Shown in pieces: positions 9,424 through 64,000 of a stretch of 64,000 nt of DNA. The translations under genes and the position numbers were made by a program. Origin of the DNA: Salinivirgaceae bacterium (lineage in GTDB: Bacteria > Bacteroidota > Bacteroidia > Bacteroidales > SZUA-534); the NCBI GenBank assembly GCA_017551905.1, contig JAFZKK010000149.1, forward strand, positions 9 through 64,008. Reading direction: 5' to 3'. A model generated the notes under the pieces. The model made no database searches. It worked only from the letters and a program-made list of their open reading frames with translations, and had not been told where the DNA came from. Each line of letters begins with the position of its first letter. The first letter of the stretch is position 1.

Positions 9424-9425
9424 TT

Positions 9426-12151: not shown

Positions 12152-12197
12152 CGATTAAACATTTAAACTTTTAACAATAACTAAAAAACTTAAAACG

Positions 12198-13013: not shown

Positions 13014-13040
13014 CAGTCGTTTTGCCATAGCGGCACAAAC

Positions 13041-13078: not shown

Positions 13079-13098
13079 TTGTGTTATGTTCAATTTTG

Positions 13099-13809
13099 TT
13101 AGTCTTCGAGTAGTATTATAGGCTCATTGTCTGACTGTTGCACCTCGACAAGCTCATTGTTGTCGCATTTGATTACGCGTCCCGGAAACTCTTTAATAAG
13201 AGGGTAGTCGTGAGTGGCTATTACAACGGCACGGCCGGTGGCGCTGATTTTTGTCAGAATCTGCATAATGCCGCGCGATGTGTCGGGGTCAAGGTTCCCG
13301 GTTGGCTCGTCGGCAAGGATAATCTCCGGATTGTTGAGCAATGCCCGCGCAATAACCACACGCTGTTGCTCGCCGCCCGAAAGCTCATTCGGCATTTTGT
13401 AACCTTTTTGCGCAAGTCCCACTTTTTCAAGCACTTCCTGAATGCGACGGTCAATCTCCATTTTGTTTTTCCAGCCAGTGGCTTTCAGCACAAACTTCAG
13501 ATTTTCGTTCACATTGCGGTCGGTAAGTAGTTGAAAATCCTGAAACACAATGCCTAACTTGCGGCGCAGGAAAGGAATCTGTTTGTTTTTGATTTTCTCG
13601 AGCTGAAATCCGGCTACAGTGCCCGTTCCCTTAGCCAAAGGCAGTTCGGCGTATAGCGTTTTGAGCAGGCTACTCTTGCCGCTGCCGGTGCGACCAATCA
13701 GATAAACAAGCTCGCCACTTTTTATCTCAAGGTTGATGTTCGACATAATGACGTTGTCGGGCTGAGCTATTGTGGCGTTCAGCAATTCTATTTTGGTATC
13801 CATTTCCAT
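13099..13809 (-). CDS. ftsE: cell-division ABC ATPase FtsE
   Basis: Walker [10 protein letters not shown], signature LSGGEQQRV, Walker [12 protein letters not shown], and an FtsE-like length. The ATG at 13809 is preferred (the track start at 13818 is a TTG). Confidence 0.8.
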
Positions 13810-13976
13810 ACTTCGCAAAATTTTTTCGACGTTTCAAAAGTAAGATTTAGAGGTGTCGCATTTGTGATAAACCGCTCATTTAATAAACATTCAATTGTTA
13901 ATTAAAACCTTGCTGAGGCCGATTATAGGCTCTCAAATGCATTTATTTTGATTTCGGTTTATTAGCTTCATTTTTT

Positions 13977-16900
13977 ATGCGTAAAACGATATTAACCAAT
14001 GTCTTAATCGCCGTATTTCTGTTGACGGCACTTGGCGTTTCCGCCCAAAAGACACAAATCTATCTTGATGAGGATTACGACTACCGAATAGGCGTCGATT
14101 TGTTTAACAAGCAGCACTATTCGCAGGCGCAGCAGTTCTTTGAGCGTGTTGTGGCGCACTACGGCAACGAGTTTTCCGACATCAAAGCCGATGCGGAGTA
14201 TTATGCGGCTTTGTGCGCGCTCGAGCTTTTCAACAGCGACGCCGAATATCGCATTGGCAAGTTCATAAACGAGTATCCCGAGAGTCCGCGCACACGGGTG
14301 GCTTATTTCGAAATGGGCCGCTATCAGTATCGGGCCAACCATTATAAAGAGGCGCTCGACTATTTCGACCGTGTGTGGAAGCAGAATCTGAACAAGGAGC
14401 AGCTTGCCGAGCTCTATTTCAAGAAAGGCTACAGCTATTTCAAACTCAAACAGTACGACCGTGCGTCGAAGATGTTCTACGAGCTTATCGACGGGAAAAG
14501 CAAATACGCCAATCCGGCAATCTATTTCTACGCTCACATAGCCTATACCAACAAGAATTACGAGACGGCGCTCAACAATCTACAAAAGATTGAGTCCGAC
14601 CCGACATTTGCGCCGGTTGTGCCATACTACAGGCTGCAGATTTACTTTATCCAAGGCAAGGACGACAAGGTTATTGAGCTTGGAAAATCACTTTTTGAGC
14701 AGACCGACGCCAAGCGCCAGGCCGAGATGTCGCGCATAGTGGGAGAGGCGCTCTACAACAAGGAGATGTACACCGAGGCCGTTCCCTATCTGGAGATTTA
14801 CAAGAGCAAGGCCGACAACTACACCCGCGAAGACATCTATCAGCTCGGCTACGCCTATTATAAGACAGGCGATTTCCAACAGGCGGCAACCACAATGTCA
14901 AATGTTACCAATATAAAAGATGAACTGACGCAGAACGCCTATTTCCACATCGCTTACTCAAATATGCAGCTTCAGCAGAAGGAGCAGGCGCGCATGGCTT
15001 TTGCCGCTGCATCGAAGTACGATTTCAACGAGCGGATAAAAGAACAGTCGTTGCTCAATTATGCTAAACTGTCTTACGAACTATCGTATTCGCCTTTCAA
15101 TGAGACGATTAAAGCTTTCAATCAATATCTGGAACAATATCCCAACTCGGTTCATCGCGATGAGGCTTACGAGTATCTAGTGAAGGCTTATCTGTCGTCG
15201 AAGAACTATCAGGCGGCGCTTGAGTCGATTGCCAAAATCAAAAACAAGACGCCCGAGATGCAGTCGGCATGGCAGCGCGTGGCTTATTTCCGCGGCTTGG
15301 AGCTCTACAACAACCTGAAATTTGAGGAGTCGGTTGTGGCGTTCGACAAAGTTATTGAGCTGAAGGCTTACGACAAGGAAATCAGGGCTTTAGCGCAGTA
15401 TTGGAAAGGTGAGGCGCTATACCGGCTCGAGAAATACACCGATGCCGCCGCCGCCTACAACCAACTTCTGACAACGCCCGGAGCCTACACAATGCCTGAG
15501 TACAAGACTTGCTATTATAACATCGGCTACTGCCATTTCAAAAATAAAGACTATACAAAGGCTGCCGACTGGTATCGCAAATACACCGAGAAAACCAGCG
15601 ACGCCGACACCGCCAAGCTGGCTGACAGCTACATCCGCATTGGCGACTGTTTCTTTGTTACGTCGAAGTTCAGCGACGCATCGCTGTTCTACGGAATGGC
15701 AGCCGACCTTAACGCGTTCGATGTCGAATACGCATTGTTCCAGAAAGGTTTTGCAATGGGACTTGGCAAAGATTTGACCGGCAAGATAAAGACAATGAGC
15801 GAGTTGCTTCGCCGTTACCCGAAATCGAACTATGCCGCCGACGCGCTTTTCGAGCGTGCGCGCGCCTACACCATTATCGATTCAACACAATTGGCAATCA
15901 ACGATTTCCACACGCTTGCCAAGAATTACCCAAACAGCTCGTATGTTGTTAAATCGCTGTTACAGACAGGTTTGCTCTATTATGCCGATGGTCAGAACTA
16001 TCTGGCTATCGACAATTTCAAGAGTGTGATTGAGAAATATCCGGGCACATCGGAGGCCGACGAGGCGCTTTTCGCTTTGAAGAATGTCTATGTCGATATG
16101 AACAAGGTTGACGACTATTTCGACTATGCCAAGAGCCGCGGAAACCTGACCGATGTCGATATGTCGGAGCGCGATTCGCTTACGTATGCTTCAGCCGAAA
16201 AGGTCTATATGACAGGCAATTGGCGTGAGGCCGGAGGCTTGTTCGACAGCTATCTCGACAAGTTCCCCGAAGGCAAATTCTCGCTCAATGCCACTTACTA
16301 TCGCGGCGACTGCAACTTGAAGATGCGCAACAACGACAAGGCTCGTGAGGATTTCGAGGCTATAGCCGCCCGTCCTAAGAATATGTTCACCGAGGCGTCG
16401 TTGCTGAGTGCAGCATCGCTTGCCGAGAGTGCAAAGGATTACAAACAGGCCGTCGAGCTTTATAAGAAGCTGGAAGACAATGCCGAAGTGAAATCGAACT
16501 TGATGATTGCGCGCGAAGGTCAGATGCAAAATGCTTTTGCCGACAGCAATTTCAATGCGGCAATCGAGGCGGCGCGTAAAGTACTGATAACCGACAAGAT
16601 AACTGAGGAGCAGATTCGCCGTGCACGTTATGTGATGGCCGTAAGCTACTATCAGACGCACCAAGCCGACCCGGCAATAACTCAGTTCCGCATTCTGGCG
16701 CTCGACATGACGAGCAAGGAGGGAGCAGAGTCGCAGTATATGGTTGCCCGAATGCTGTTTGAGCAGGGCGAGTTGCAAAAGTCGGAGGAGGCTGTCAATG
16801 CGCTCATCTCGTCGGGAACATCGCATTTCTACTGGATTGCCAAGGCGTTCTTCTTGCTGTCTGATATCTGCATGGAGCGTGGCGACCGTTTCCAGGCCAA

Positions 16901-17441
16901 GGCCAACTTGCAGAGTGTTATTGAGAACTACGGCGACACCTCCGACGGCATTGTTGACGAAGGCAACGCCAAGTTGAAACTCATTACCGATGAGGAGAAC
17001 GAGAAGTTTGTTGAGGATAATTCGACGCAGGAGGTAGTGATTAAGTTCAACGAGAACAATTCGGAAATGGAGTCGGAGGATGATGACGAAGAAGAAGCGC
17101 AACCGGAACCGGCACCCGAACCAGCCGTTGAGGAGGCTCCCAAAACCGAATCGATGCAAGTGGTAGAACCGCAAAATACTGAAACAAAACAGGTTGAACC
17201 GACTGAAAACGATACTCTGCAAGAGACAGAAACAACCGAAGACGCTGGCACGCAGACCGAAACTGAAAGTGCTGAAAGTCAGTCGGCCAACGAAACCGAA
17301 CAGTCGACAGCCGAAAGCGAACCTGAAGCCGCAGAGCCGCAAGCTGAGGAACAGCAGGAACAGAATACAGAACAGACTGATACTGAGCCTGCTAACGACA
17401 ATCAAGAACAAGACGAGGCTGAAAATCAAGAACAAGAATAA
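13977..17441 (+). CDS. large tetratricopeptide-repeat protein with acidic low-complexity C-terminal tail
   Basis: Signal peptide without a lipobox cysteine. Repeated TPR-like A/Y/F-spaced helices run throughout. The last ~130 residues are E/Q/T/D/P-rich (EEAQPEPAPEPAVEE...NQEQDEAENQEQE). Confidence 0.8.
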   Translation: MRKTILTNVLIAVFLLTALGVSAQKTQIYLDEDYDYRIGVDLFNKQHYSQAQQFFERVVAHYGNEFSDIKADAEYYAALCALELFNSDAEYRIGKFINEYPESPRTRVAYFEMGRYQYRANHYKEALDYFDRVWKQNLNKEQLAELYFKKGYSYFKLKQYDRASKMFYELIDGKSKYANPAIYFYAHIAYTNKNYETALNNLQKIESDPTFAPVVPYYRLQIYFIQGKDDKVIELGKSLFEQTDAKRQAEMSRIVGEALYNKEMYTEAVPYLEIYKSKADNYTREDIYQLGYAYYKTGDFQQAATTMSNVTNIKDELTQNAYFHIAYSNMQLQQKEQARMAFAAASKYDFNERIKEQSLLNYAKLSYELSYSPFNETIKAFNQYLEQYPNSVHRDEAYEYLVKAYLSSKNYQAALESIAKIKNKTPEMQSAWQRVAYFRGLELYNNLKFEESVVAFDKVIELKAYDKEIRALAQYWKGEALYRLEKYTDAAAAYNQLLTTPGAYTMPEYKTCYYNIGYCHFKNKDYTKAADWYRKYTEKTSDADTAKLADSYIRIGDCFFVTSKFSDASLFYGMAADLNAFDVEYALFQKGFAMGLGKDLTGKIKTMSELLRRYPKSNYAADALFERARAYTIIDSTQLAINDFHTLAKNYPNSSYVVKSLLQTGLLYYADGQNYLAIDNFKSVIEKYPGTSEADEALFALKNVYVDMNKVDDYFDYAKSRGNLTDVDMSERDSLTYASAEKVYMTGNWREAGGLFDSYLDKFPEGKFSLNATYYRGDCNLKMRNNDKAREDFEAIAARPKNMFTEASLLSAASLAESAKDYKQAVELYKKLEDNAEVKSNLMIAREGQMQNAFADSNFNAAIEAARKVLITDKITEEQIRRARYVMAVSYYQTHQADPAITQFRILALDMTSKEGAESQYMVARMLFEQGELQKSEEAVNALISSGTSHFYWIAKAFFLLSDICMERGDRFQAKANLQSVIENYGDTSDGIVDEGNAKLKLITDEENEKFVEDNSTQEVVIKFNENNSEMESEDDDEEEAQPEPAPEPAVEEAPKTESMQVVEPQNTETKQVEPTENDTLQETETTEDAGTQTETESAESQSANETEQSTAESEPEAAEPQAEEQQEQNTEQTDTEPANDNQEQDEAENQEQE

Positions 17442-17454
17442 AGGAGATATACCG

Positions 17455-19149
17455 ATGAAAAGTAATAGAATAAGTATATTGACTATCATATTGTTAGGCG
17501 CAACAACAGCATTCGCGCAGAACAACAACCTGAACCAAGAGGTGAAAGTGATAAAGGCATACGAGCCGGTAATCAACGATGCGTATAAAATCAGCTCGCT
17601 GCCCAAAATTGTTGACACTCTCAACGTTACGCCAACTTTCGACTACGATGACGGCGTTACTCCGGAGATGTACAAAACCAAATACAAACCAAAGCAGATG
17701 AAACCAGCAAAGCTTGTCGCCGAGCCGCTCCCGAAGCTCTACAACGTGTATGTGAAAGGCGGTTTCGGAATGTACACAACGCCGCTACTTAACATCTACA
17801 CCGGCAGCCAGAGGTCGGAAAAATGGCTGTGGAACGCCAACATGAACTACACTTCGAGCAGCGCCAAGGTTAAGAACGAAGACGACAAGCGGGTTTATGC
17901 AGGATTGTCGAAGTTCGACATTAACGGCAGCGTGCACCGCTATTTCAAAAACGATATGGCGGCTTCAATATCAGCTGGTTACGGCAATCGTGGCAATTAT
18001 TATTACGGATATGCCACCGAACTCAATCTGCCCGATTCGCTTATTCCTTTGAAACGGAAAGATATTGAGAAACAAAGTGTTAACTACTATAACATAGGAG
18101 CGACGGTCTATTCGACAAACCTTGATTCGGCTGAAATCGACTATAAGGTGTCGCTTGGCTACAACGGCCTGAAAACCAAAGACAGCAAGAGCGAAAACAA
18201 TATCCATTTCGACGGATATATTAGCTATCTACTTGATAAAGAGTTCTTAGGCGTTAAATGTGTGATAGACAATTACAAAACGCAAGGTCTTGCTAATGAT
18301 GTCAACTCGGCGGTTGTCAATTTCAATCCGTGGGTAGGCGCCTACGGCCGCAAATGGCGCGTCAAGGTGGGTGTCAACACTTTCTACGACCAGCGCAATC
18401 AGAAGTATATGTTCTTCCCCGACATCAGCATGCAGTATAACATTATCGACTATTTCCTACTGCCGTATGTCGAGCTGAACGGCAACTATAAAGTGCACGA
18501 TTACAAGGATATGTACTTCGAAAATCAGTTTGTGAAATCCGATTTGCGGATAAACCCGACCAAGACGCGAATCAATCTCGCTTTGGGTTTCCGCGGCAAC
18601 ATTAGCTCGCGTATCGCATTCAATATCAAGGCCGAATATGCTAAAATTGACAATCAGTATTTCTTCGTGAACGACACATCGACTTTGTTGCACGAGAAAT
18701 TCTTTGTTGTGTACGACGACATTATGCGTACTCACATCTTGGGCGAAATATCGTACAAGACGAGCGAGAAATTTAAGATTGGCCTGAAGGGACACTATTA
18801 TATTTATGATATGTCGACAGAGCTGGAGGCATGGCACTTGCCAACTTACAACATTAGCCTCGATGCTAGCTACAACCTGTCGAACAAGATAATAGCTACG
18901 GCCAATGTCTATGCCGTAAGCCGCCGTCAGGCTTGCCTCTATCAGGTGGACGGGCCGGGTAAGGTGCTACCTGTGGCCAAAGAGCTCGACGGTGTCATCG
19001 ACATCAATCTGGGCGTGGAGTACCGCATCACCAAACGGTTCTCCGGCTTCCTCGATTTGAACAACTTGACCGGCAGCCGCTATTACCAGTGGAACCAGTA
19101 TGCCAACCAGCGCTTCAATTTCATGCTTGGGTTGACTTACGCATTTTAA
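17455..19149 (+). CDS. outer-membrane beta-barrel protein (putative porin family)
   Basis: The ATG at 17455 gives the signal peptide MKSNRISILTIILLGATTAFAQ (the track ORF from 17194 overlaps the upstream tail). Alternating beta-strand pattern with a C-terminal LGLTYAF. Confidence 0.6.
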   Translation: MKSNRISILTIILLGATTAFAQNNNLNQEVKVIKAYEPVINDAYKISSLPKIVDTLNVTPTFDYDDGVTPEMYKTKYKPKQMKPAKLVAEPLPKLYNVYVKGGFGMYTTPLLNIYTGSQRSEKWLWNANMNYTSSSAKVKNEDDKRVYAGLSKFDINGSVHRYFKNDMAASISAGYGNRGNYYYGYATELNLPDSLIPLKRKDIEKQSVNYYNIGATVYSTNLDSAEIDYKVSLGYNGLKTKDSKSENNIHFDGYISYLLDKEFLGVKCVIDNYKTQGLANDVNSAVVNFNPWVGAYGRKWRVKVGVNTFYDQRNQKYMFFPDISMQYNIIDYFLLPYVELNGNYKVHDYKDMYFENQFVKSDLRINPTKTRINLALGFRGNISSRIAFNIKAEYAKIDNQYFFVNDTSTLLHEKFFVVYDDIMRTHILGEISYKTSEKFKIGLKGHYYIYDMSTELEAWHLPTYNISLDASYNLSNKIIATANVYAVSRRQACLYQVDGPGKVLPVAKELDGVIDINLGVEYRITKRFSGFLDLNNLTGSRYYQWNQYANQRFNFMLGLTYAF

Positions 19150-51285: not shown

Positions 51286-52500
51286 TTACATCGCCTTAGG
51301 CATCGTAAAAAAGAACGTGCTTCCGCTGTCTTTAGTGCTTGTGGCCCAGATTTTTCCGTTGTTTTTCTCGACAAATTCCTTGCAGAGAATCAGTCCGAGT
51401 CCGGTGCCTTCAAGCTCGTTGTTTTCGTTGTGGCTCAGGGTGCGGCTGTCGATGCGGAACACCTTAGCCAGCTGTTCCTCGTCCATTCCGGGGCCTTGGT
51501 CGGCAATGCTGACCTCCACCATGTCGTCTTCAACCTCGCGCGCCTTGATTGTGATAGAGCTGTTTTGCGGACTGAATTTCAGTGCGTTCGACACAATGTT
51601 GCGAATCACAAACGTAGTCATATCCTGGTCGGCGTAAATGTCGAGATACGGGTCGGCTTCAGTGTCGATGTTGATGTTTTTCTCTTTGATGACGCCAGCT
51701 TGTTGCTCTACAACGCTGTTTATGACGCTGTTAAGGTTGACGCTCTTGAAGTTGATTTTTATCTGTCCGGTCTGCGAGCGCGCCCATTGCAGCAGGTTCT
51801 CGAGCAGGCCGAAAATCTTGTGCGAGTAGAAGTTTATCTGTTTGATGTACTCGTGGTCTTTGTGCGGATTCGATTGGTATATCCCGCTCAGCATCAGGTC
51901 GGTAATGTTGATGATAGCCGAGAACGGGTTCTTCAGGTCGTGCGAGATTATTGTGAAGAATTTGTCTTTGGCGGCGTTTTTCTGTTCCAGTTCGTTTTTC
52001 TGTTTCTCCAGATTACGCTTCTCAACTACAAGTTTCTCCTGTTCTTTTTGTATCTCGTTGGCTTTCTGAGTCATAGCCTCCTCACGGTTGTTGAAGTTGC
52101 GCAGGCGGCCCAGCAGCGAAATCATCATCTTCTCCCAAAGGTCGGGGCGTTGCGCCACCACTTGGCTGAACCTTTCGCGTGTCAGAATCAGGAACGTTGA
52201 GCCGTGCAGTGTTGTCACACTGGTTGAGCGTGGCGACTCGTCGATGAGCGCGTATTCGCCAAAATATTGGCGGCTGTTGAGTGTGGCAAAGGTATGCTCG
52301 CCATTGTGGATTTTCACGCTTCCGTCGACAATTATGTACATCGATTTGCCCGGCGACCCTTTGGCAAACAAAAGCTCATCTTTCTTATAATGAACCTCTT
52401 TCATGTTGCTTGCCATGGCTGTGAGCGCATCCTCGTCAAAGTCGCGGAACAATTCAACCTGGCGGAGCAGCATAATCGATTTCTGAATATCATCTTGCAT
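51286..52500 (-). CDS. cyclic-nucleotide-binding-domain sensor histidine kinase
   Basis: cNMP-binding domain (LFAKGSPGKSMYIIVDGSVKI...FGEYALIDESPRSTSV), coiled coil, H-box FFTIISHDLKNPF, and HATPase (NALKFS, DQGPGMD, GTGLGL). The ATG at 52500 is preferred over the GTG at 52506. Confidence 0.85.
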   Translation of the reverse strand: MQDDIQKSIMLLRQVELFRDFDEDALTAMASNMKEVHYKKDELLFAKGSPGKSMYIIVDGSVKIHNGEHTFATLNSRQYFGEYALIDESPRSTSVTTLHGSTFLILTRERFSQVVAQRPDLWEKMMISLLGRLRNFNNREEAMTQKANEIQKEQEKLVVEKRNLEKQKNELEQKNAAKDKFFTIISHDLKNPFSAIINITDLMLSGIYQSNPHKDHEYIKQINFYSHKIFGLLENLLQWARSQTGQIKINFKSVNLNSVINSVVEQQAGVIKEKNINIDTEADPYLDIYADQDMTTFVIRNIVSNALKFSPQNSSITIKAREVEDDMVEVSIADQGPGMDEEQLAKVFRIDSRTLSHNENNELEGTGLGLILCKEFVEKNNGKIWATSTKDSGSTFFFTMPKAM

Positions 52501-52657
52501 AAACACGTGTTTTTACATCTCCTAAAAATAAAGAAACTTAGGTAGAAACTTCAAAAAAAAGAGATTTTATTTGATAATATTCCGATAAATGCAGAAAAAC
52601 GGAACTTTTCCGCTTGTGTCTTGCATTTTTTTGTAGATTTAGTAAAATTTTGAAGAT

Positions 52658-54694
52658 ATGAAAGTGCCAAAAATTGTTAAGGACGACCCTTGGTTGAATC
52701 CTTACCGACAAGTAATTACAGACAGAATGCAGCACTGCGCCGATGTTGAGGCTCACTTGACAGGCGGCGGCAAACAGTCGCTTTACGATTTCGCCAACGG
52801 CTATATGTATTACGGTACTTTTTGCGACGGACAGACAACGACAATCCGCGAATGGCTGCCCAACGCAATGCGCGTGACGCTCATAGGCGACATAAACGGC
52901 TGGCAGGAGAGTGCCGATTACGATTTCAAACCGCTCGACGGCGGCAACTGGGAGTTGAAACTGCCGGCGGCAAAGTTCGGGCACGGCTCCATTTTCCGTC
53001 TGAAAGTTTACTGGAACGGCGGCGAGGGCGAGCGCATTCCGGCTTGGTCGCGCAGGGTGGTGCAGGATTCGAAAACCAATATCTTCAGCGCGCAGGTGTG
53101 GTGTCCGCCGCAGCCTTACGAGTGGAAATGCACCGAGCGTCCGAAAGCCGACGAGCCTTTCATCTACGAGGTGCACGTGGGCATGGCGGGCGAGAAGGAG
53201 GCCGTGAGCACATTCAACGATTTTCGCCGCGATGTGCTGCCGCGCGTCATCAAGCTTGGCTACAACACCATTCAGATGATGGCCATTCAGGAGCATCCTT
53301 ACTACGGCTCGTTCGGCTATCATGTGTCGAGTTTCTTTGCCGTCTCGTCGCGGTTTGGCACGCCTGACGACCTCAAGGCGCTCATCGACGAATGTCACCA
53401 GAATGGCATCCGTGTGGTTATGGATTTGGTTCATTCTCATGCAGTTAAAAACGAAAACGAAGGTCTTGGCCTTTACGACGGAACACGCTATCAGTTCTTC
53501 CACAGTGGCGACCGAGGCGTGCATCCGGCGTGGGATTCGTACTGTTTCAATTACGGAAAAGACGAGGTTATCCATTTCCTTCTGTCGAACATAAAATATT
53601 GGCTCGAGGAGTTCCATTTCGACGGTTTCCGTTTCGATGGCGTTACCAGCATGATTTATCTGAATCATGGTCTGGGCGAGGATTTTACGTCGTATGAGCT
53701 TTATTTCAACGGCGCGCAGGACGAGGACGCCATTGTTTATCTGATGCTTGCCAACAAACTGATAAAGCAAGTCAATCCGGAATCGATATCGATTGCCGAG
53801 GAGATGAGCGGTTATCCGGGCTTGGCAATGCCTTTGGCCGACGGCGGTGTCGGTTTCGATTACCGTCTGGCTATGGGAATCCCCGATATGTGGATTAAAG
53901 TGCTGAAAGAGAGCCCGAACGATGAGTCGTGGGACTTGGGGCACATTTATCACGAACTGACTTCGAAGCGCGCCGATGAGCGGACAATCTCGTATGCCGA
54001 GTCGCACGACCAGGCGCTTGTGGGCGATAAGACCATGGCTTTCTGGCTGATGGACAAGGAGATGTATTTCAGCATGCTTGTCACGACGCAGAATCTGCAA
54101 ATCGACCGAGGCATCGCCTTGCATAAGATGATAAGATTGCTGACAATGGCAACGGCCGGCGGCGGCTATTTGAACTTTATGGGCAATGAGTTTGGACATC
54201 CCGAATGGATTGATTTTCCACGTGAGGGCAACAACTGGTCGTATAAATACGCCATGCGCCAATGGAGCCTTGCCGACCGCGACGACTTGAAATACAAATA
54301 CTTGGATGCTTTCGATGTTGCAATTGTGCATCTTCTTCGCGAGCGTCATTTGCTCAAGATTTTCCCGTTCTATGCGCAGCTGGTGAGCCAGGAGAATATG
54401 GTGCTGTCGTTCTCGCGTGGCGATTTGCTGTTTGTCTTCAATTTCCACCCGACGCGCAGCTACACCGATTTCGAGATACCGGTTGTCGAGGGCAAATACA
54501 AGATATTGCTCAGCACCGACGAACTGCAGTTTGGCGGTTTCGGCCGCATCGACGAGGCTATGTCGTACCCGACATCGGTTGCCAGCGTTGACGATAAATC
54601 GACTATAAAACTCTATATACCAGCGCGTTCGGCAATCGTTTTGCAACGGCAGTTTATACCTAATGTTTATCAGCGGTTGCTGGGGAAAAAGTAA
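52658..54694 (+). CDS. glgB: 1,4-alpha-glucan branching enzyme (GH13)
   Basis: GH13 conserved regions are VVMDLVHSHAV, GFRFDGVTSM, IAEEMSG and YAESHDQ. The length is typical of a branching enzyme, with an N-terminal E-set region. Confidence 0.9.
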   Translation: MKVPKIVKDDPWLNPYRQVITDRMQHCADVEAHLTGGGKQSLYDFANGYMYYGTFCDGQTTTIREWLPNAMRVTLIGDINGWQESADYDFKPLDGGNWELKLPAAKFGHGSIFRLKVYWNGGEGERIPAWSRRVVQDSKTNIFSAQVWCPPQPYEWKCTERPKADEPFIYEVHVGMAGEKEAVSTFNDFRRDVLPRVIKLGYNTIQMMAIQEHPYYGSFGYHVSSFFAVSSRFGTPDDLKALIDECHQNGIRVVMDLVHSHAVKNENEGLGLYDGTRYQFFHSGDRGVHPAWDSYCFNYGKDEVIHFLLSNIKYWLEEFHFDGFRFDGVTSMIYLNHGLGEDFTSYELYFNGAQDEDAIVYLMLANKLIKQVNPESISIAEEMSGYPGLAMPLADGGVGFDYRLAMGIPDMWIKVLKESPNDESWDLGHIYHELTSKRADERTISYAESHDQALVGDKTMAFWLMDKEMYFSMLVTTQNLQIDRGIALHKMIRLLTMATAGGGYLNFMGNEFGHPEWIDFPREGNNWSYKYAMRQWSLADRDDLKYKYLDAFDVAIVHLLRERHLLKIFPFYAQLVSQENMVLSFSRGDLLFVFNFHPTRSYTDFEIPVVEGKYKILLSTDELQFGGFGRIDEAMSYPTSVASVDDKSTIKLYIPARSAIVLQRQFIPNVYQRLLGKK

Positions 54695-54824
54695 AGAAGG
54701 CATTAGGCAAAAGGCATAAGTATTTAGGAGTTAGGAATTAGTAATTAACAATGAATGCTTTAAACTTGTTCAACCTGTTCAACTTTTAAACTAAACATTA
54801 AACTCTAAACACTAAACATTTACA

Positions 54825-56766: not shown

Positions 56767-56996
56767 TGTTACAACTTTTAGTTTCCCGATTACGAACATA
56801 CGAAAAAATACTATTGAGGTTACGATTTAGTCGAAAAAAACTGAATAAGATGGTTGGAAAGCCTGCATTTCGCAGGTTGACAAGAAATGTTTTTTTATGG
56901 GATACATATTTAAAAAAGAGTATTATTGTAGTTTAAAATGGAATATAGCCGGAGATATATTCAATATTCACGGCTGCAAAATTGGATTTAACAGAT

Positions 56997-58076
56997 ATGG
57001 ACGGATTCAAAAACATTGAGATTAAGAACTTCAGAGGCATTGACCATCTGACAATTGATGATTGTTCACGCGTGAATGTCTTTCTCGGGCAAAACGGTTC
57101 GGGGAAGTCATCAATCCTTGAAGCATTATTGATGATTGCAGGAATGTCAAATCCGGAACTTCCCCGAAATATCAATATGTTACGTTCAAAGGGAACATAT
57201 GGGCATTTTCTTGACGTAAGGTATATGTTTCACAATTTAATGTTAATGAATCCTCCGGAAATTTCCACAATTCAAACAAAAGGAGCGAAACGACATCTTA
57301 CTCTAAAAATGCCATTTGTTTTCGACGAACAATCTCAAACCACAACGCCGATAGGCCAAATCCAACGGTCCGACGCAATGGTTCAAGTCAATCAAGTGGA
57401 GATGAATTTTGATATTACAGAAGACGAAATCGTTAATAGGTATAAAAGCACATTGTCCTTCAACCAACAAGGTCCCATTAGGGGAAAAATTGCTGACGGA
57501 TATCAAGAAAAAATGTATGCATCACTGATTCCTGCGAATATTCCTACCGGGAATTCGACAAGTGATTTGTCGGAATTAGTAAAACGGAAAATGAAACAAT
57601 TGGTTGTTGACCGGCTTGTCTATTTTGATAATAGGATAACGACCATTGAAGTATTGTCTGACGGCGTTTTTGTTGGTATCGAAGGTGTGCCGGAATTATT
57701 ACCGGTCACAATGCACGGCGATGGTATGTTCCGTTATTTGACAATTGTGGCGGCGTCCGCCAATCCAATATCCGATGTTGTTCTGATTGACGAAATCGAA
57801 AATGGTCTGCATTATTCAGCCTACAAAAAACTCTGGGAAGCCATCTTTGCTTTGGCAACCGAAACAAACAAACAAATATTTATAACAACCCACAGCAAGG
57901 AAACTCTATACCGGTTGAACGAAATGCTTGAAGAGAAACCCTGCTACCAAGATGCATTGCGGCTATATACAATAGAGAACACCAAACTTAAAGGGCAGCA
58001 AGCATACAAATATTCCTTTGAGGAACTGAATGCCGCTTGCAAGAATGGTGTGGAAATTAGAAGTTTAGCATTATGA
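56997..58076 (+). CDS. ABC/SMC-type ATPase (AAA_21-like; AriA/OLD-family ATPase-like)
   Basis: Walker A GQNGSGKSS, signature-like HGDGMF, Walker B VVLIDEIENGLH, and His-switch ITTHS. The ATG at 56997 is preferred (the track start at 56982 is a TTG). Confidence 0.75.
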   Translation: MDGFKNIEIKNFRGIDHLTIDDCSRVNVFLGQNGSGKSSILEALLMIAGMSNPELPRNINMLRSKGTYGHFLDVRYMFHNLMLMNPPEISTIQTKGAKRHLTLKMPFVFDEQSQTTTPIGQIQRSDAMVQVNQVEMNFDITEDEIVNRYKSTLSFNQQGPIRGKIADGYQEKMYASLIPANIPTGNSTSDLSELVKRKMKQLVVDRLVYFDNRITTIEVLSDGVFVGIEGVPELLPVTMHGDGMFRYLTIVAASANPISDVVLIDEIENGLHYSAYKKLWEAIFALATETNKQIFITTHSKETLYRLNEMLEEKPCYQDALRLYTIENTKLKGQQAYKYSFEELNAACKNGVEIRSLAL

Positions 58077-58684
58077 AAGAACGTTTTCACATTATTGTTG
58101 AAGGAATTGCTGATTTAGTGTTTTTTGAACAATACTACCAACATCTGTTCGGGAAACCAGCGCCAGAAGGTTTTATTTTTAAAACTGACGGAAAAGACAA
58201 TTTGCATAAGTTTGTGAACAAGATGCGTAGTATGACGGCCAATGACGGGGTGAATCTTGTTATCTTCGATGCAGATAAAGACATAGATGCAAGGCGAAAC
58301 GAATTATTGGAGTGGAAAGAAAAAGCGGGCGTTAACTTCGAGTTGTTTTTGCTGCCAAATAACAAAAATAAAGGTGCCTTGGAAGATTTGTTGGAAAGCA
58401 TCATAAATCCGAATAACCGACCGATCTTCAATTGTTGGGAAGATTACGAAAAAGAACTTGTCAAATTAGAGATTCCTGGCCGCACACCACCGCCATTAAC
58501 CACTCCCGCCAAGAAAACAAAGATTTATGGATATTTGGAGGCATTGCTTGGACCAACGAATGACGAAAAAGAATTGATAAAAGAGCGAAATAGAGAGTAT
58601 TTCAACACAAAACATTGGAATTTGGATGCGGAGTATTTGGAGCCGTTGAGGAGGTTTTTAATTGAGCATTTAAAAGAAAACTAA
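58073..58684 (+). CDS. TOPRIM-like protein (DUF4435/DUF4276-like; AriB/OLD-nuclease-like partner of the ATPase)
   Basis: N-terminal IIVEGIADLVFF (TOPRIM Glu) and VIFDADKD (DxD). About 200 aa. The start overlaps the ATPase stop (ATGA at 58073-58076). Confidence 0.55.
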   Translation: MKERFHIIVEGIADLVFFEQYYQHLFGKPAPEGFIFKTDGKDNLHKFVNKMRSMTANDGVNLVIFDADKDIDARRNELLEWKEKAGVNFELFLLPNNKNKGALEDLLESIINPNNRPIFNCWEDYEKELVKLEIPGRTPPPLTTPAKKTKIYGYLEALLGPTNDEKELIKERNREYFNTKHWNLDAEYLEPLRRFLIEHLKEN

Positions 58685-59904
58685 TGAAAAAGAAAAACTA
58701 TACAGTAATTGACCTTTTTGCAGGGTGTGGGGGCTTATCGCTAGGCTTATATCAAGCCGGCTGGAAGGGTCTTTTTGCTATCGAAAAGAATGCATTTGCA
58801 TTTGAAACTCTGAAATACAATCTGATTGACAACAAAAAACACTTCCAATGGCCTGATTGGCTGCCTCAAAAGGAACATGACATCAATGAAGTGCTGGAAA
58901 AATATCCAAAGCAATTGGAAGCATTGCAAGGCAAGGTTGATTTGGTAGCAGGAGGACCACCTTGTCAAGGTTTTTCCATGGCAGGGAAACGTGTTGAAGA
59001 TGATGTGCGTAATCAATTAGTATTCTCGTATATTAAGTTTATCGACTTAGTGCGGCCGAAAATGATTCTTTTTGAAAATGTAAAAGGTTTTACATACGCT
59101 TTCGACAAAGGGAAATCAACTTCAACCGAGAATGAACCTTATTCTCACAAAGTAATTCGTGAATTGAGAAACTTGGGATACAATGTAAGACCCCACGTGA
59201 TTGATTTTTCTGAATACGGCGTACCACAACGCCGCAAACGTTTTATTCTTGTTGGGATTCGACAAGAATTAGGTGCACCTGAGCAATTTGAGGATTTGTT
59301 GAAAGCCAATCGCGATACTTTTTTGACAAAAAAAGGATTGAAAACAACCACCACTTTGCAAGATGCCATTTCAGACCTTTTGCGTTCCAATGGGGAAGTT
59401 TCTTCTCCAGACAGAAAAGGGTTTTATTCTGGAATATATGATAAGAAAAAACTTACGGCATACGAAAAAATAATGCGTGGAGATTACCCAAAAACACATG
59501 ATATAGCCGATAGCCATAGTTTTGCCAAACAAACACCAGATAAAATCAATTGTTACAAACGGTTGCTTGCTGAATACCCACAACGAGGTAAACGGATTGA
59601 CGGGAAATCCCGTGAGCAGTGGGGTATCAAACAACGAGGTATTACGGTGCTGGATCCCAATGCCGTTTCGCCAACCATTACGGGGCATCCTGACGATTAT
59701 CTGCACTATTGTGAGCCTCGTATCATGACCGTTCGTGAGTGCGCTCGTATCCAATCGTTTCCCGATTGGTACGAGATTAAGAAAAAGTACACCACTGGCG
59801 GCAAGATGCGCAAGTTGGAAGTTCCTCGTTATACACAAATCGGCAATGCCATTCCGCCTTTGTTTGCAGAACAAGCGGGGAATGTACTTAAAATGATGAT
59901 ATAA
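58684..59904 (+). CDS. dcm: DNA (cytosine-5)-methyltransferase
   Basis: Motif I DLFAGCGGLSLG, motif IV GGPPCQGFS, motif VI ENV, motif VIII QRRKRF, motif X GNAIPPLF. Confidence 0.95.
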   Translation: MKKKNYTVIDLFAGCGGLSLGLYQAGWKGLFAIEKNAFAFETLKYNLIDNKKHFQWPDWLPQKEHDINEVLEKYPKQLEALQGKVDLVAGGPPCQGFSMAGKRVEDDVRNQLVFSYIKFIDLVRPKMILFENVKGFTYAFDKGKSTSTENEPYSHKVIRELRNLGYNVRPHVIDFSEYGVPQRRKRFILVGIRQELGAPEQFEDLLKANRDTFLTKKGLKTTTTLQDAISDLLRSNGEVSSPDRKGFYSGIYDKKKLTAYEKIMRGDYPKTHDIADSHSFAKQTPDKINCYKRLLAEYPQRGKRIDGKSREQWGIKQRGITVLDPNAVSPTITGHPDDYLHYCEPRIMTVRECARIQSFPDWYEIKKKYTTGGKMRKLEVPRYTQIGNAIPPLFAEQAGNVLKMMI

Positions 59905-59907
59905 GAT

Positions 59908-62457
59908 ATGGCAAGTCTTCACTTTAAAACAAATGTGCAAATAAAAAGTATCATTGGTAAAGATCTTATCAATGATGATAATATTGCCATCCTTGAACTC
60001 GTCAAGAATTCCTTTGATGCAGATGCAAAACGAGTGGATATTTCATTTCTGAACCTTAAAGAAAATGACGATAGCGAAGTCGAGGAATATTCGCATAAAA
60101 CCTCGAAATTGATATTAGCTGATGATGGAGTCGGAATGGACATAGTGGATATTCGTGAGAAATGGTTAAATATCGCTTATTCCGAGAAAAAAACAAAGTC
60201 CAGACAGTATAATAGATTAATGGCTGGAGCCAAAGGTGTTGGACGTTTTTCATGTGACAGGTTAGGCAAATATCTTAATTTATACTCTACGAAAGATAGC
60301 AACACATACTATTCTTTAAAGATAGATTGGAAAAAATTTGAAATAAATGACAAAGATACAGAAATACAATCTATTGCTCTGGATTATGAAGTGTTAACTT
60401 CTTCGGAGTTATTGCAACGTGGCATCCAACCGTTTAAGCATGGTGTTGTCTTGGAGATCATAAAATTGCGCAGCAATTGGGTTGCATATGATGGCAATCG
60501 CTGGATAACAGACAAATTAACAAACTTGAAAAAGTATCTCGAAAAACTCATCAATCCCAATCAGGCATTTGAGAAGAATGATTTTGGTATATATCTAAAT
60601 GCACCAGAATTTTTGGCAGAGAATGCCGAACAGGAAGAAAATGACAAGTTTATAGGCAAAGTAGAAAATACGATTTTTCAGAAACTTGATTTTAAAACAA
60701 CAAGCATTGAGTGCAAATCAATAGAAGGTGGCTCTCAAATACAAACAACTCTTAAAGATAAAGGAGAAACTATTTATTGGATTAAGGAAGTATCGGATTA
60801 TTATCCGGCCATCAAGGATTTTAAAATCACTTTATATTTCCTTAATACTTATGCTAAAGCCTTTTTTACCAAACAAACAGGTATTCGCTCTGTTGATTAC
60901 GGTTCTATTTTTTTGTTTCTTAATGGGTTTAGAATACCTCCGTATGGAGAATTTGGCGATGATTGGTTGAAACTTGATCAAAGGCGTGCACAAGGCTATG
61001 CGCGTTTTATTAGTGCTCGTGATTTGGTTGGTCAGATAGAAATATTGGATGTAGATGAAACTTTTCAGATTGTATCCAGCAGGGAAGGATTGGTCAAAAA
61101 CGACAACTATGACATACTTACGAATAAAAAAAATGGTTTATTTTATAGGGTATTGAGACGATTGGAAAGGTATGTCGTTGATGGTTTGGATTGGGATAGT
61201 ATTCCTGAAGAAGATAGAAACAAAACGTCAGAAATCGAGAAGAAAATTATTAGTGGTGAACTTGTTGAAAAAGATTTAAAATATAAAGAAGATTCTAATA
61301 TAAAGCGACGTAGAATCTATGAAAGTATACATTATATTATTAATGCAAATCCGCAAAAGGTAATAGAATTATATATTAATGAGGACTTGATTGAGTCAAA
61401 AGTCGCAGAGGAAAAAGTGCTGGCTGAACAAGAATTTTCCCAGCTATTATCCGACTTTGAAAATAAAAAAGTATCTGGTGAACTTTTGGCACAAATATTA
61501 AGAAGAAAGGCAGAAGAGAGTGTGGAATTAGAGAAACAATTGGCTGCTTTCTCAAGATATACTACAACAGAGGCCACCTCTAAAGCTATAGCAGAGATTC
61601 AACAGTATAAAAAAACGATAGAAGAACAAACGCATGTTATTGAAGCTCTGAAAAAACAATTGGACGAAATCCAAAAGGAGATTGACGCGACAAAACAGGC
61701 TGCCCACATACGTATCTCGACTGCTGAAAAGAAGCAACAAGAAGCGGAAAGAGAGAGAGATTTGTTCAAACAAGCCAATACATACCTACAATCCACGCGA
61801 ACCATATCTGAGGAAGAAGAATCTTTTATACACATCATAAATGTCTATGCAGCAGAAATTGAACCGGCGTTTGATAAGATTGACCATATTGTAAAGTCAA
61901 ATAGTTCTATATCGAAAGAGTTTATTCTTGAGATTGGAGTCATTCGCGCTTTCTTTGATAAAATCATAAGCACAGCGAGTCTGTTGACAAAAGCTAACAT
62001 AAAAAAACTTGCAGATAAAGAGATAATAAATTTATCCGATTTTATCGTTGAATACATAAATAAGTGTTCGGAAGTTCTCTTTAGGGATATAGATTTTAAA
62101 ATCATCAATGAGAAAAATGCAGAATATTTCGGAGCATATAGTTTATTGGACATATCTGTATTGATAGATAATTTAATTAGCAATGCGAAAAAAGAGCATG
62201 CTGATAAAATACAAATAAATATCTTCCAAAAAGAGAACAAATATGTTATAGATTTTTCAGATTCTGGTAATGGAGTTTCAGACCCCACTATAGGAAAGCA
62301 CATGTTTGACATAGGTGTAACTACCCGCTATGGAGGATCTGGAATAGGCCTCGCATCAGTTAAAAAGATAGTGAACGATATGAATGGGAAAATCTCGTTC
62401 TTGGGGAATAATATATATCTCAAAGGAGCAACATTTAGAATAGAATTTGACATATGA
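59908..62457 (+). CDS. dual-GHKL protein: N-terminal MORC/Hsp90-like ATPase (HATPase_c_3-like), coiled coil, C-terminal histidine-kinase-like ATPase
   Basis: N-terminal module: ELVKNSFDADA (N-box), LADDGVGMD (G1), GAKGVGRFS (G2). Long K/E/Q-rich helical segment. C-terminal module: LIDNLISNAKKE (N-box), DFSDSGNGV (G1), GGSGIGLASVKK (G2). A candidate phospho-acceptor motif, ESFIHIINVY, lies upstream of the second module. Confidence 0.7.
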   Translation: MASLHFKTNVQIKSIIGKDLINDDNIAILELVKNSFDADAKRVDISFLNLKENDDSEVEEYSHKTSKLILADDGVGMDIVDIREKWLNIAYSEKKTKSRQYNRLMAGAKGVGRFSCDRLGKYLNLYSTKDSNTYYSLKIDWKKFEINDKDTEIQSIALDYEVLTSSELLQRGIQPFKHGVVLEIIKLRSNWVAYDGNRWITDKLTNLKKYLEKLINPNQAFEKNDFGIYLNAPEFLAENAEQEENDKFIGKVENTIFQKLDFKTTSIECKSIEGGSQIQTTLKDKGETIYWIKEVSDYYPAIKDFKITLYFLNTYAKAFFTKQTGIRSVDYGSIFLFLNGFRIPPYGEFGDDWLKLDQRRAQGYARFISARDLVGQIEILDVDETFQIVSSREGLVKNDNYDILTNKKNGLFYRVLRRLERYVVDGLDWDSIPEEDRNKTSEIEKKIISGELVEKDLKYKEDSNIKRRRIYESIHYIINANPQKVIELYINEDLIESKVAEEKVLAEQEFSQLLSDFENKKVSGELLAQILRRKAEESVELEKQLAAFSRYTTTEATSKAIAEIQQYKKTIEEQTHVIEALKKQLDEIQKEIDATKQAAHIRISTAEKKQQEAERERDLFKQANTYLQSTRTISEEEESFIHIINVYAAEIEPAFDKIDHIVKSNSSISKEFILEIGVIRAFFDKIISTASLLTKANIKKLADKEIINLSDFIVEYINKCSEVLFRDIDFKIINEKNAEYFGAYSLLDISVLIDNLISNAKKEHADKIQINIFQKENKYVIDFSDSGNGVSDPTIGKHMFDIGVTTRYGGSGIGLASVKKIVNDMNGKISFLGNNIYLKGATFRIEFDI

Positions 62458-63158
62458 GAACACATTGCTTAATAATAGATGATGATAATCAGGAAGAATA
62501 TTTCAATACTCATGTGCAGCGCGTATTAGGAGCTGAAGGTATTGAAGTCGTTCCTGTTTTTATCAAACCTACAGAGCGAAAATACATAAAACCAGACCAT
62601 TCCGGTTTGGATATAGATTCCATTATTTCGGATTGTAATAACTTGATAGAAACATTAGATGTATCCATCATTGTTTCTGATTATAAGATTGCCACAAGAA
62701 AAGATTCTTTTACTGGTGTGGATATAGTTTTAGCTCTTATAGAAAGATATCCCCAAATTTATAAGATATTATATTCTGCCACAATTAAAGATGCCATTAA
62801 ACAAGTCTTATCATTATTGCCTGCGAAAGCTAAAATTGATGATATAGATGTCGATAAAGTTATTGAAGATTTGGCAAGGATAGCCAAAATAAATGATTTT
62901 GTCAGTGGTAAAGGGTATGAGCAGAAACTAATAAAACATCTTCGCAATCCGGAAATACAATATAAGCAGCATTTAATCAATGTTCTTAAAGAATGTGCCC
63001 CAGATATTGTATTTAAATCATGTTATCCTCCGTTTGTTGGAAAGACATTAAAGGAAATTGGGAAAGAAATAGAATCTGATACACTCCAAGGACGTGAATT
63101 TCAGGAAGAATTGATTCGTCAAACACTTGCATATATAGTAGCCGTCAATCATGAGTAA
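62454..63158 (+). CDS. receiver-like (REC-fold) protein with uncharacterised helical C-terminal half
   Basis: CLIIDDD (beta1 acidic cluster), SIIVSDYKI (candidate phospho-acceptor Asp76, nt 62679-62681), KILYSAT (beta4 Ser/Thr). The start overlaps the upstream stop (ATGA). Confidence 0.45.
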   Translation: MRTHCLIIDDDNQEEYFNTHVQRVLGAEGIEVVPVFIKPTERKYIKPDHSGLDIDSIISDCNNLIETLDVSIIVSDYKIATRKDSFTGVDIVLALIERYPQIYKILYSATIKDAIKQVLSLLPAKAKIDDIDVDKVIEDLARIAKINDFVSGKGYEQKLIKHLRNPEIQYKQHLINVLKECAPDIVFKSCYPPFVGKTLKEIGKEIESDTLQGREFQEELIRQTLAYIVAVNHE

Positions 63159-63792
63159 AACTGTTTGTATATATTCTCAAGAGAGGGACGGTTCTACGGA
63201 TTTCCTAAAACCTCTATATGACCATATTTGTACGACGCTCTCTGCAGATGGCGTTGGCTATGATGCGGATAGTGAAGAGGATACTATTTCCAGAATATAT
63301 GATGCCACTAAGGATGCAGATACAATTATTTTCTTAGGGCATGGTAATAGCAAGGGGCTATATGCATGTGTTCAGGATAATTTTGAATTATTCAATCAGA
63401 AGAATGTTGCTATGTTGACTGATAAGTCATTGTTCCTACTTGCGTGTAGATCATCTGATTTTATAAAAAGATTCTCCTTAACTAATGCTATCGGCTTTGG
63501 GCATTTACCTACAAGTAATGAAGATGCTAAACATTGGAATAATGAGCATAGTATCGCATTGAATGATTTTTCTAAAGATGATATTAAACTTTACGATAAC
63601 GCAATAGTAAGTATCCTCTACAATGCGATAGCCCCCGAAACAATATCAAATTCCAATCTGCTATATAATAGGATTAAGTTACAAGCGAGTATGGAAATTG
63701 TCAAGTGTCTTATTCTGCACAAAGATAACCCGCATTACCGGAAGATAGCCGATTTGTTATTCTATTTGCAGAAAGATATACGGATACAATAA
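63151..63792 (+). CDS. hypothetical protein with caspase/CHAT-like His...Cys dyad pattern
   Basis: A hydrophobic strand plus GHG (TIIFLGHGNSKG, His64 at 63340-63342). About 35 residues later, a hydrophobic strand plus AC (SLFLLACRSS, Cys99 at 63445-63447). It overlaps the upstream gene by 8 nt. The function is inferred only from this pattern. Confidence 0.35.
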   Translation: MSKTVCIYSQERDGSTDFLKPLYDHICTTLSADGVGYDADSEEDTISRIYDATKDADTIIFLGHGNSKGLYACVQDNFELFNQKNVAMLTDKSLFLLACRSSDFIKRFSLTNAIGFGHLPTSNEDAKHWNNEHSIALNDFSKDDIKLYDNAIVSILYNAIAPETISNSNLLYNRIKLQASMEIVKCLILHKDNPHYRKIADLLFYLQKDIRIQ

Positions 63793-63821
63793 TCAAGAAC
63801 AGTTTTTTAACAAACTATGTA

Positions 63822-64000
63822 ATGAGGAAAAAAGCCGTAACTATTATGCCCAAGAAAAAATATACATTCATAGACCTATTTGCAGGAGCTGGCGGGCTTT
63901 CTGAAGGTTTTATTAGAGCAGGATTTGAACCTGTAGCGCACATTGAAATGAACAAGTATGCGTGTGACACTCTTCGCTCAAGGATGAAACACTATGGCTA
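63822..64000 (+). CDS. dcm: second DNA (cytosine-5)-methyltransferase, N-terminal fragment (continues past window end)
   Basis: Motif I is FIDLFAGAGGLSEGF. The start is either ATG 63822 or ATG 63846. The ORF is open at the window edge. Confidence 0.85.
   Translation, partial: MRKKAVTIMPKKKYTFIDLFAGAGGLSEGFIRAGFEPVAHIEMNKYACDTLRSRMKHYG

Follow-up and report, generated by a model that had tools for sequence, protein, structure and literature searches.

A C5 cytosine methylase-linked, two-component-like gene module with exchangeable putative effectors in a Salinivirgaceae bacterium and its relatives

Introduction

Soluble histidine kinases encoded beside C5 cytosine DNA methylases are the closest described relatives of the genes treated here. 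In a purely computational survey of 644 regions, Bellieny-Rabelo, Pretorius & Moleleki 2021 (PMC8011034) described soluble kinases of the architecture HATPase_c_3 + HEF_HK + HATPase_c, with adjoining Response_reg_2 proteins and a C5 methylase upstream (Pfam PF19191 and PF19192), and reported Vsr or HNH_2 as frequent neighbours. The receiver proteins contained no other known domain and no effector was named; a role in the regulation of restriction-modification (R-M) systems was proposed. Here we analyse a related module from a Salinivirgaceae bacterium, located in a stretch of 64,000 nucleotides (nt) of contig JAFZKK010000149.1, hereafter the window, whose positions are used as coordinates. Seven + strand genes lie at the 3' end of the window. 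Four of them form a conserved unit, encoding a C5 cytosine DNA methyltransferase (Dcm), a protein with two GHKL ATPase modules, a receiver-like protein and a small protein with an invariant His/Cys dyad.

The paraMORC GHKL ATPases form another related group and are known to function in R-M contexts (Iyer, Abhiman & Aravind 2008, PMC2292703). Fusions of paraMORC with HEPN (Ymh) domains have been proposed as PrrC-like guards (Anantharaman 2013, PMC3710099). What they share with the present module is a GHKL domain of HATPase_c_3 type at the N-terminus, found next to cytosine methylases and Vsr and combined with toxic domains that are C-terminal or neighbouring (restriction-endonuclease-fold nuclease, TIR, HEPN). 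In the paraMORC proteins the effector is fused to the ATPase, whereas here a histidine-kinase core and a separate receiver stand between sensor and effector. The Detocs system of Rousset et al. 2023 reportedly combines a sensor kinase of TPR type with a buffer receiver and an ATP-depleting receiver-PNP effector; it is said to have no methylase.

A conserved four-gene unit

The core genes of the window are:

58684..59904, + strand: core gene 1, C5 cytosine DNA methyltransferase (Dcm), 406 aa
59908..62457, + strand: core gene 2, soluble GHKL-histidine-kinase protein, 849 aa
62454..63158, + strand: core gene 3, receiver-like protein, 234 aa
63151..63792, + strand: core gene 4, His/Cys-dyad protein, 213 aa (H64 codon 63340-63342, C99 codon 63445-63447)

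The Dcm and kinase genes are separated by 3 nt (59905-59907), the kinase and receiver genes meet in an ATGA (62454-62457), and the receiver and His/Cys genes overlap by 8 nt (ATGAGTAA, 63151-63158). Upstream of the core, an ATGA at 58073-58076 joins an AbiLi-like to an AbiLii-like gene, and a TAATG at 58682-58686 couples the latter to Dcm. Downstream, a 29-nt spacer precedes the ATG at 63822 of a truncated second Dcm. The gene coordinates and all stop/start junctions agree between an earlier note on this DNA and the list of open reading frames (ORFs). The AT-rich block described there is also real, with a GC content of 0.366 in 56900-64000 vs 0.478 in 1-56500.

One genome per species was scanned, which yielded 79 other loci; their ORFs were called, clustered and compared with the window proteins. 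A Dcm of the same subfamily (42-84% identity) is located immediately upstream of the kinase gene, on the same strand, in 74 of the 79 loci, with a median gap of -1 nt. The Dcm scores are 5.5e-60 for Pfam DNA_methylase and 2e-48 for NCBIfam dcm. This Dcm-kinase arrangement spans Bacteroidota, Chloroflexota, Proteobacteria, Acidobacteriota and a Methanosarcina. In 39 loci a homologue of the 234-aa receiver gene is found 3' of the kinase gene (median gap -4 nt), and in 38 the His/Cys gene is next. We refer to the latter layout, a ~232-aa receiver homologue and then a ~213-aa His/Cys homologue with median gaps of -4 nt, as variant A; all 38 loci are from Bacteroidota. In variant B, found in 31 loci, a single ~300-aa receiver/HEPN-like fusion takes the place of the pair. 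Its hosts are Chloroflexota, Proteobacteria, Acidobacteriota, Deferribacterales, a Methanosarcina and some Bacteroidota. At L033 (5676-6062) and L034 (12671-13054) the kinase gene is followed only by a stand-alone receiver of 127 aa, and no obvious effector adjoins it; in L031 an unassigned 137-aa protein occupies this position.

The genes beyond the three- or four-gene core vary between loci. Because synteny is conserved for the core while the flanks vary, the conserved unit is the four genes 58684-63792, translationally coupled and inside a composite island, and not a set of six or seven genes as the earlier note had it. The co-occurrence of the three non-methylase genes, which that note had made a test of its proposal, was found in other genomes, with conserved synteny in 38 loci. 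The kinase family comprises at least 430 clusters (50% identity) at E<=1e-30, according to an exhaustive search of cluster representatives, and is common in gut, rumen and oral Bacteroidales.

A census of the nearest flanks (132 ORFs) counted nine Vsr, five HhH-GPD glycosylases, five HNH_2 and three Dcm proteins; PIN, SIR2_2, Schlafen-AlbA_2, EcoRII-C and RhuM were also seen, besides ordinary housekeeping genes. Across loci, Vsr is the most frequent of the flank genes, and HhH-GPD glycosylases are found repeatedly on the upstream side. Their recurrence fits a function in the repair of C5-methylation damage. In many Flavobacteriia loci, e.g. L021 8553-8774, a ~70-aa HTH_3 (Cro/C1-type) protein precedes Dcm. 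The window lacks this protein, a possible controller like those of Type II R-M systems.

The GHKL-histidine-kinase protein

Pfam recognises two GHKL modules in the 849-aa protein, as the earlier note had claimed. The parts of the protein are:

59980..60375, + strand: N-terminal Hsp90/MORC-type GHKL ATPase domain, aa 25-156 (Pfam HATPase_c_3, 1.1e-18)
60478..61389, + strand: middle region, ~aa 191-494, with many invariant columns, e.g. NGFRxPPYG at 339-347 and SSREG at 390-394
61831..61833, + strand: codon of His642, a candidate phospho-accepting His in a helical segment after a coiled-coil stretch
62155..62451, + strand: C-terminal histidine-kinase catalytic (CA) domain, aa 750-848 (Pfam HATPase_c, 1.5e-17)

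Conservation was scored on an alignment of 71 full-length homologues. The N-terminal ATP-binding motifs are intact (E30..N34..D37, D72xGxG76 and G107xKGxG112), and their residues are at least 95% conserved. The family profile of this domain matches the N-domains of Hsp90/HtpG in the PDB at ~1e-6, which together with the HATPase_c_3 match bears out its assignment to the MORC/Hsp90 type. No Pfam or PDB sequence match was obtained for the strongly conserved middle region of ~300 aa; it may be the counterpart of the S5-like or DNA-binding portion of the paraMORC proteins. A variable, coiled-coil-like stretch comes next.

His642 is invariant (71/71) and is the only residue in aa 541-716 that is at least 95% conserved. 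Residue 643 is T, Q, I or H in the 71 homologues (Ile643 in the window, 61831-61836) and never Asp or Glu. This non-acidic position may reflect a distinct family of dimerisation and histidine phosphotransfer (DHp) domains, or a different chemistry. All four CA boxes, N, G1, F and G2, are conserved (D754, N755, N759, K762, D785xGxG789, F800, G810xGxG814), and the matches of the domain in the PDB are histidine kinases only. The protein has no membrane segments and is predicted to be soluble. It combines the CA boxes with a conserved His in a helical segment, as a putative two-component system (TCS) kinase should. His642, together with Asp76 of the receiver-like protein and His64 and Cys99 of the His/Cys protein, had been singled out earlier as key residues, and all four are invariant in the homologues.

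The receiver-like protein

The 234-aa protein received no Pfam (including Response_reg), NCBIfam or PADLOC assignment. Its REC-like character, proposed in the earlier note, is supported by comparisons of profiles and of models. The first 120 aa are REC-like, with D9/D10 and invariant D76, Y107 and S108. Alignment by hhalign of the 234-aa family to the REC-containing family c4, i.e. the N-domain of the variant B proteins, gave a probability of 96.4%, with D76 placed on the invariant Asp and the YS motifs aligned. The variant B proteins themselves match Pfam Response_reg at ~3e-6, and their profile finds only response regulators in the PDB. The profile of the 234-aa family matches the receiver of NtrC1 in the PDB at 7e-5. 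The AlphaFold2 (AF2) model of the protein is poor (predicted local distance difference test, pLDDT, 61), with a beta-alpha repeat in aa 1-120, and the top Foldseek matches of this poor model are the response regulators MaeR, RssB and RcsB.

At the level of single residues, D76 and S108 are invariant, the D9/D10 position is conserved across the family only in being acidic, and the conserved Lys could not be securely placed. The C-terminal ~110 aa are helical, with conserved F187, P192, G196, A226 and N232; this domain was modelled at pLDDT 30-50, which gives no usable fold.

The His/Cys protein

In 19 homologues of the 213-aa protein, down to 24% identity, D13, F61, G63-H64-G65, L96, C99, S101 and G115-F116 are kept, which gives the invariant motif FLGHG...LLxCxS. 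The AF2 model is confident (pLDDT 94.2) and has a helical C-terminal domain following the His/Cys part. In this model His64 (F61-L-G-H64-G65) follows the strand 58-62 and C99 (L96-L-A-C99) follows the strand 93-97, and the two strands are adjacent. A His-Gly and an Ala-Cys, each after a strand, are the signature of clan CD peptidases. The best PDB match of the model in Foldseek is caspase-7 (7e-4); RgpB (template modelling score, TM, 0.47) and several procaspases are also listed. Below the threshold, Pfam Peptidase_C50 was seen in 2 of the 19 members (0.018) and Peptidase_C25 in one (0.047). We tentatively regard the protein as a putative clan CD (caspase/gingipain-like) effector. With this assignment, the predicted kinase, receiver and effector layout joined to a Dcm, which the earlier note had put forward, is present in the window.

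Alternative outputs and distant relatives

The C-terminal half of the variant B proteins carries invariant MRG and RNxxAH motifs. HEPN RNases possess an Rx4-6H motif, which RNxxAH fits, and from this motif alone the output domain is inferred to be HEPN-like; no model or family match supports the assignment. The Bacteroidota kinases with variant B and those with variant A stand at the same distance from the window kinase (50-55% identity). Since kinases with either output are equally close, the output end has been exchanged between close relatives.

More distant relatives are found on plasmids. A Bacteroides finegoldii plasmid (L082 6001-11103) encodes a kinase, a receiver-like protein, an HNH nuclease and an N6 methylase, and a Campylobacter jejuni conjugative plasmid (L083 5989-10454) encodes a kinase, a 340-aa response regulator and a convergent dcm. 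Their match to the kinase is confined to its N-terminal ~45%, with <33% identity; the close loci from the genome scan are chromosomal contigs. The plasmid relatives extend the theme to other methylase types and nuclease outputs.

A very divergent case is L074 (9977-13368), where a 714-aa kinase precedes a 201-aa receiver (Pfam 4e-7) and a 213-aa protein; the trio is flanked by two pairs of Dcm genes and LlaJI-type genes. This 213-aa protein has an FGHG...FSC motif with the same His-Cys spacing as the window protein. It was rejected as a detectable homologue, as hhalign gave no significant match despite the same spacing. L074 may represent a second lineage of the receiver and His/Cys pairing.

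Relation to described systems

The window kinase shares with the HEF_HK/Response_reg_2 proteins the architecture, a His-bearing helix, the lack of membrane segments, a receiver-like neighbour and an upstream C5 methylase; Vsr and HNH_2 recur nearby in both. It differs in its H-box, which has no acidic residue after the His, unlike the 'HEF' motif, and in the outputs, which here are a His/Cys protein or an HEPN-like fusion, whereas the 2021 paper named none (PMC8011034). None of the window proteins and 70 relatives reaches PF19191 or PF19192 at E<=0.1. For PF19191 no match at this threshold was found for the kinases of the window, L054, L049, L074, L082 and L083; as a control, the kinase of L075 matches at 6.3e-5 and 23.8 bits, just under the cutoff of 24.1. 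The window kinase is 29% identical to the L075 kinase over aa 3-416. PF19192, a model used without a positive control, matched neither the 234-aa protein nor any c4 protein or plasmid relative. Membership of the window proteins in these Pfam families was rejected for want of matches. We regard the window module as a putative diverged sister branch of the C5-methylase-linked, two-component-like class, outside both families.

The earlier note called the operon undescribed. This stands for the outputs, which had not been named before, and for the branch, which the Pfam models miss; it falls for the kinase/receiver pair next to C5 methylases, since that class was described computationally in 2021 (PMC8011034). 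What had not been described is the putative minimal caspase-like partner and the exchangeable outputs. Literature searches found no experimental study of the four-gene module. The DefensePredictor paper mentions HATPase and REC only among the abbreviations explained for a figure of systems that are predicted and unvalidated.

The sole likeness of the kinase N-domain in NCBIfam is to the N-terminus of the BbrUII/HgiDII restriction enzymes (NF050001; 4.6e-15, aa 28-188, in the window kinase and 4e-12 in L054), with which it has the GHKL domain in common. Enzymes of the BbrUII/HgiDII family pair with C5 methylases. The kinase was rejected as such a restriction enzyme: it scores 55 bits vs a cutoff of 550, the likeness is limited to the ATPase domain, and a kinase core replaces the nuclease half. 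The likeness ties the ATPase type of the kinase to methylase-linked DNA enzymes all the same.

With Detocs the module shares the logic of kinase, receiver and toxic effector, and the stand-alone receivers of L033 and L034 add to the likeness. The kinship seen is limited to the generic kinase and receiver domains; the module is set apart from Detocs by the reported make-up of that system, and the lack of PADLOC matches is no test of the relationship. In PADLOC-DB 2.0.0 no model names the kinase, the receiver or the His/Cys protein, which is the outcome that the earlier note had anticipated. The best scores are insignificant (DruC 0.079, PDC-M49A 0.0012), and there is no match at all for the 213-aa protein or the c4 proteins. 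Membership in a named defence system was rejected, as the three non-methylase proteins have no PADLOC match. MADS, the methylation-associated defence system, was likewise rejected: the AbiLi-like ATPase next to the core scores 39.7 bits vs the NCBIfam MAD3 cutoff of 420, and the kinase, receiver and His/Cys proteins match no mad model.

A proposed phosphorelay and its alternatives

The best explanation of these genes, in our view and on balance a probable one, is a phosphorelay that is linked to methylation and turns on swappable toxic effectors. In such a relay the methylase would mark the host's own DNA, and the N-terminal GHKL domain with the middle region would act as an ATP-driven clamp reporting unmarked DNA or the loss or inhibition of methylation. 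The signal would lead to autophosphorylation on His642 by the C-terminal kinase domain, and the phosphoryl group would move from His642 to Asp76 of the receiver. The receiver's C-terminal domain would then release or activate the His/Cys protein, which would cleave host or phage proteins, and the outcome would be growth arrest, abortive infection or post-segregational killing. The idea is in line with published proposals of paraMORC ATPases as R-M components (PMC2292703) and of paraMORC-HEPN proteins as PrrC-like guards (PMC3710099). In favour of the relay count the conserved synteny, the intact kinase features with the invariant His642, the receiver assignment, the dyad and model of the 213-aa protein, the exchanged outputs with their RNxxAH motif, the plasmid relatives, the N-domain shared with BbrUII/HgiDII enzymes, the flanking genes and the low-GC island.

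Several points weigh against this explanation. Its phosphotransfer, DNA-binding and protease steps are all predictions. His642 has no acidic neighbour, which HisKA kinases need. The receiver is very divergent, with the usual Lys unclear and a model at pLDDT 61. As to the 213-aa protein, its model reaches only low TM scores against caspases (0.38-0.47) and comparable scores against flavodoxin-like and DNPH1-like folds, and Pfam and PDB profile searches gave nothing significant, so that a proof of caspase identity at the sequence level had to be given up. No model of a clan CD family (Peptidase_C14, CHAT, C13, C25, C50) matched above threshold. The caspase/CHAT-like reading of the earlier note is supported by the invariant dyad and the weak Foldseek matches to caspase-7 and gingipain, and not by any significant profile match. 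The HEPN identity of the variant B domain has the motif as its sole basis. Finally, the loci were retrieved by peptide patterns of the window protein, which biases the set towards relatives with the same layout.

A bolder form of the proposal, which we offer tentatively and consider possible rather than probable, is an R-M system without a restriction enzyme, in which the clamp would read the C5 mark and a His-to-Asp relay would fire interchangeable suicide effectors. Bacteroidota would use a minimal caspase-like protease, plasmids an HNH nuclease and other hosts an HEPN RNase.

The proposed relay to toxic effectors has to be weighed against a regulatory TCS, in which the kinase and receiver would tune neighbouring R-M genes (Dcm, LlaJI-type) and the 213-aa protein would be an accessory and not toxic. 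Signalling that controls R-M systems was suggested by the authors of PMC8011034, and in gut and rumen Bacteroidales further Dcm genes together with McrB/McrC- or LlaJI-like pairs are repeatedly found behind the module (L004, L007, L008, L009, L012, L074). The helical C-terminal domain of the receiver could bind DNA, and RcsB is among its weak Foldseek matches; however, Pfam and NCBIfam searches detected no helix-turn-helix or other DNA-binding domain in the receiver protein, and restriction genes are not adjacent to the module in most loci. Moreover, the His/Cys dyad is invariant, and the fusion of the receiver to an HEPN-like domain with invariant RNxxAH in 31 loci points to an effector rather than a regulator. 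We consider the regulatory TCS unlikely.

Type II R-M systems are established cases of post-segregational killing. An addiction module would have the same gene layout as the relay, with the methylase as antidote; the relay would fire when methylation decays after loss of the element, killing segregants, and would not be a phage defence. Post-segregational killing by Type II R-M systems is also discussed in PMC8011034. The module is mobile, with its low-GC island, variable flanks and relatives on conjugative plasmids, as addiction would have it. Against this, the close loci are chromosomal and the plasmid matches are those to the N-terminal part of the kinase described above. Addiction and defence are inseparable by sequence alone and do not exclude each other; as an account in its own right, we consider addiction improbable.

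Neighbouring genes and the low-GC island

The remaining genes at the 3' end of the window are:

56997..58076, + strand: AbiLi-like ABC/OLD-type ATPase, 359 aa from ATG or 364 aa from TTG at 56982, a neighbour and not part of the core
58073..58684, + strand: AbiLii-like DUF3226/TOPRIM-like protein, 203 aa, a neighbour and not part of the core
63822..64000, + strand: N-terminal stump of a second Dcm, with motif I FxDLFAGxGG; the ORF ends 19 nt past the window end

The AbiLi-like ATPase matches PADLOC AbiLi at 2e-59 over its full length, as well as Pfam AAA_15 and AAA_21, and its partner matches Pfam DUF3226 (4e-13), PADLOC AbiLii (1e-5) and PDC-M38B (5.5e-8). By these matches the pair 56997-58684 is AbiLi/AbiLii, a separate known system. 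It is found upstream in only 3 of 80 loci, L001, L003 and L004, with the same AbiL-Dcm-kinase order; in this lineage the module has thus acquired a known pair of abortive-infection genes.

L001, an 84-kb metagenome scaffold from the European Nucleotide Archive (ERZ28653494, scaffold_554) that encodes the 849-aa protein identically, was used beyond the window end. The low-GC island spans ~6600-18000 of this scaffold. The second m5C methyltransferase of the earlier note turned out to be a 65-aa ORF (L001 13915-14112), which aligns only with the first ~60 aa of full-length Dcm proteins. Directly after it come an McrB-like R1 (AAA_5 2e-7; PADLOC REase_II 9e-45) and an R2 (RE_LlaJI 1.1e-5), and the stump and these LlaJI-type genes occupy L001 13915-18064 (window 63822 onward). 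The earlier statement that no restriction endonuclease is present was a consequence of where the window ends, immediately before these genes. An LlaJI-type R-M system has two C5 methylases, R1 and R2; here R1 and R2 are present and the adjacent methylase is the 65-aa stump. R1 and R2 seem to have lost the methylase that belonged to them. In the relatives L007, L008, L009, L012 and L074 the position of the stump is held by one or two intact Dcm genes. McrB/McrC- or LlaJI-like pairs follow the module in a few gut and rumen Bacteroidales and belong to two families (c11/c9 and c12/c13).

Both the AbiL pair and the genes of LlaJI type correspond to known systems and are absent from most loci with the four-gene core; they are separate systems that share the low-GC island with the core and are not conserved with it. 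A single seven-gene system (AbiL-like pair, Dcm, kinase relay, second Dcm and downstream restriction genes), favoured by the stop/start overlaps that link all genes here, by the AbiL-Dcm-kinase order in L003 and L004 and by the LlaJI-type genes following in several relatives, is very unlikely and, as one operon, rejected on the four-gene core synteny with variable flanks, given also that AbiL is a stand-alone known system, that the AbiL pair is present in only 3 of 80 loci, that LlaJI/McrBC-type genes are found in a minority of loci and come from two families, and that the second Dcm is a stump.

Some further features lie outside the island. On L001, 18097-20234, just after the island and of normal GC, encodes a NUDIX hydrolase, a 342-aa protein with a signal-peptide-like start and a Vsr. 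On the - strand of the window, 51286-52506 encodes an ordinary cyclic nucleotide (cNMP)-binding histidine kinase (HisKA + HATPase_c by Pfam on L001) of normal GC, unrelated to the module. A 721-aa ORF on the - strand at 52538-54703 is antisense to a glycogen-branching-enzyme-like gene (52658-54694) and is a mechanical ORF, not a gene.

Significance

If the module works as an immune or addiction system, self-marking by methylation would be coupled to a two-component phosphorelay and not to a nuclease, with a MORC/Hsp90-type ATPase as the sensor. In eukaryotes, MORC proteins are readers of chromatin state, and this parallel makes the sensor of interest. On the bolder reading, the module would represent a new immune signalling logic, uniting epigenetic self-marking, a phosphorelay and a bacterial caspase-like executioner; the 213-aa protein would be the smallest known caspase-like effector under receiver control. 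The outputs (protease-like, HEPN-like and HNH) would form a natural set of swappable modules behind one sensor, useful for the study of signal transfer.

The family is absent from current defence catalogues, as judged from PADLOC, and the defence annotation of the genomes that carry it misses it. The description of 2021 ended at two domains and a regulatory guess, whereas the four- and three-gene units presented here make the hypothesis testable with a few point mutants.

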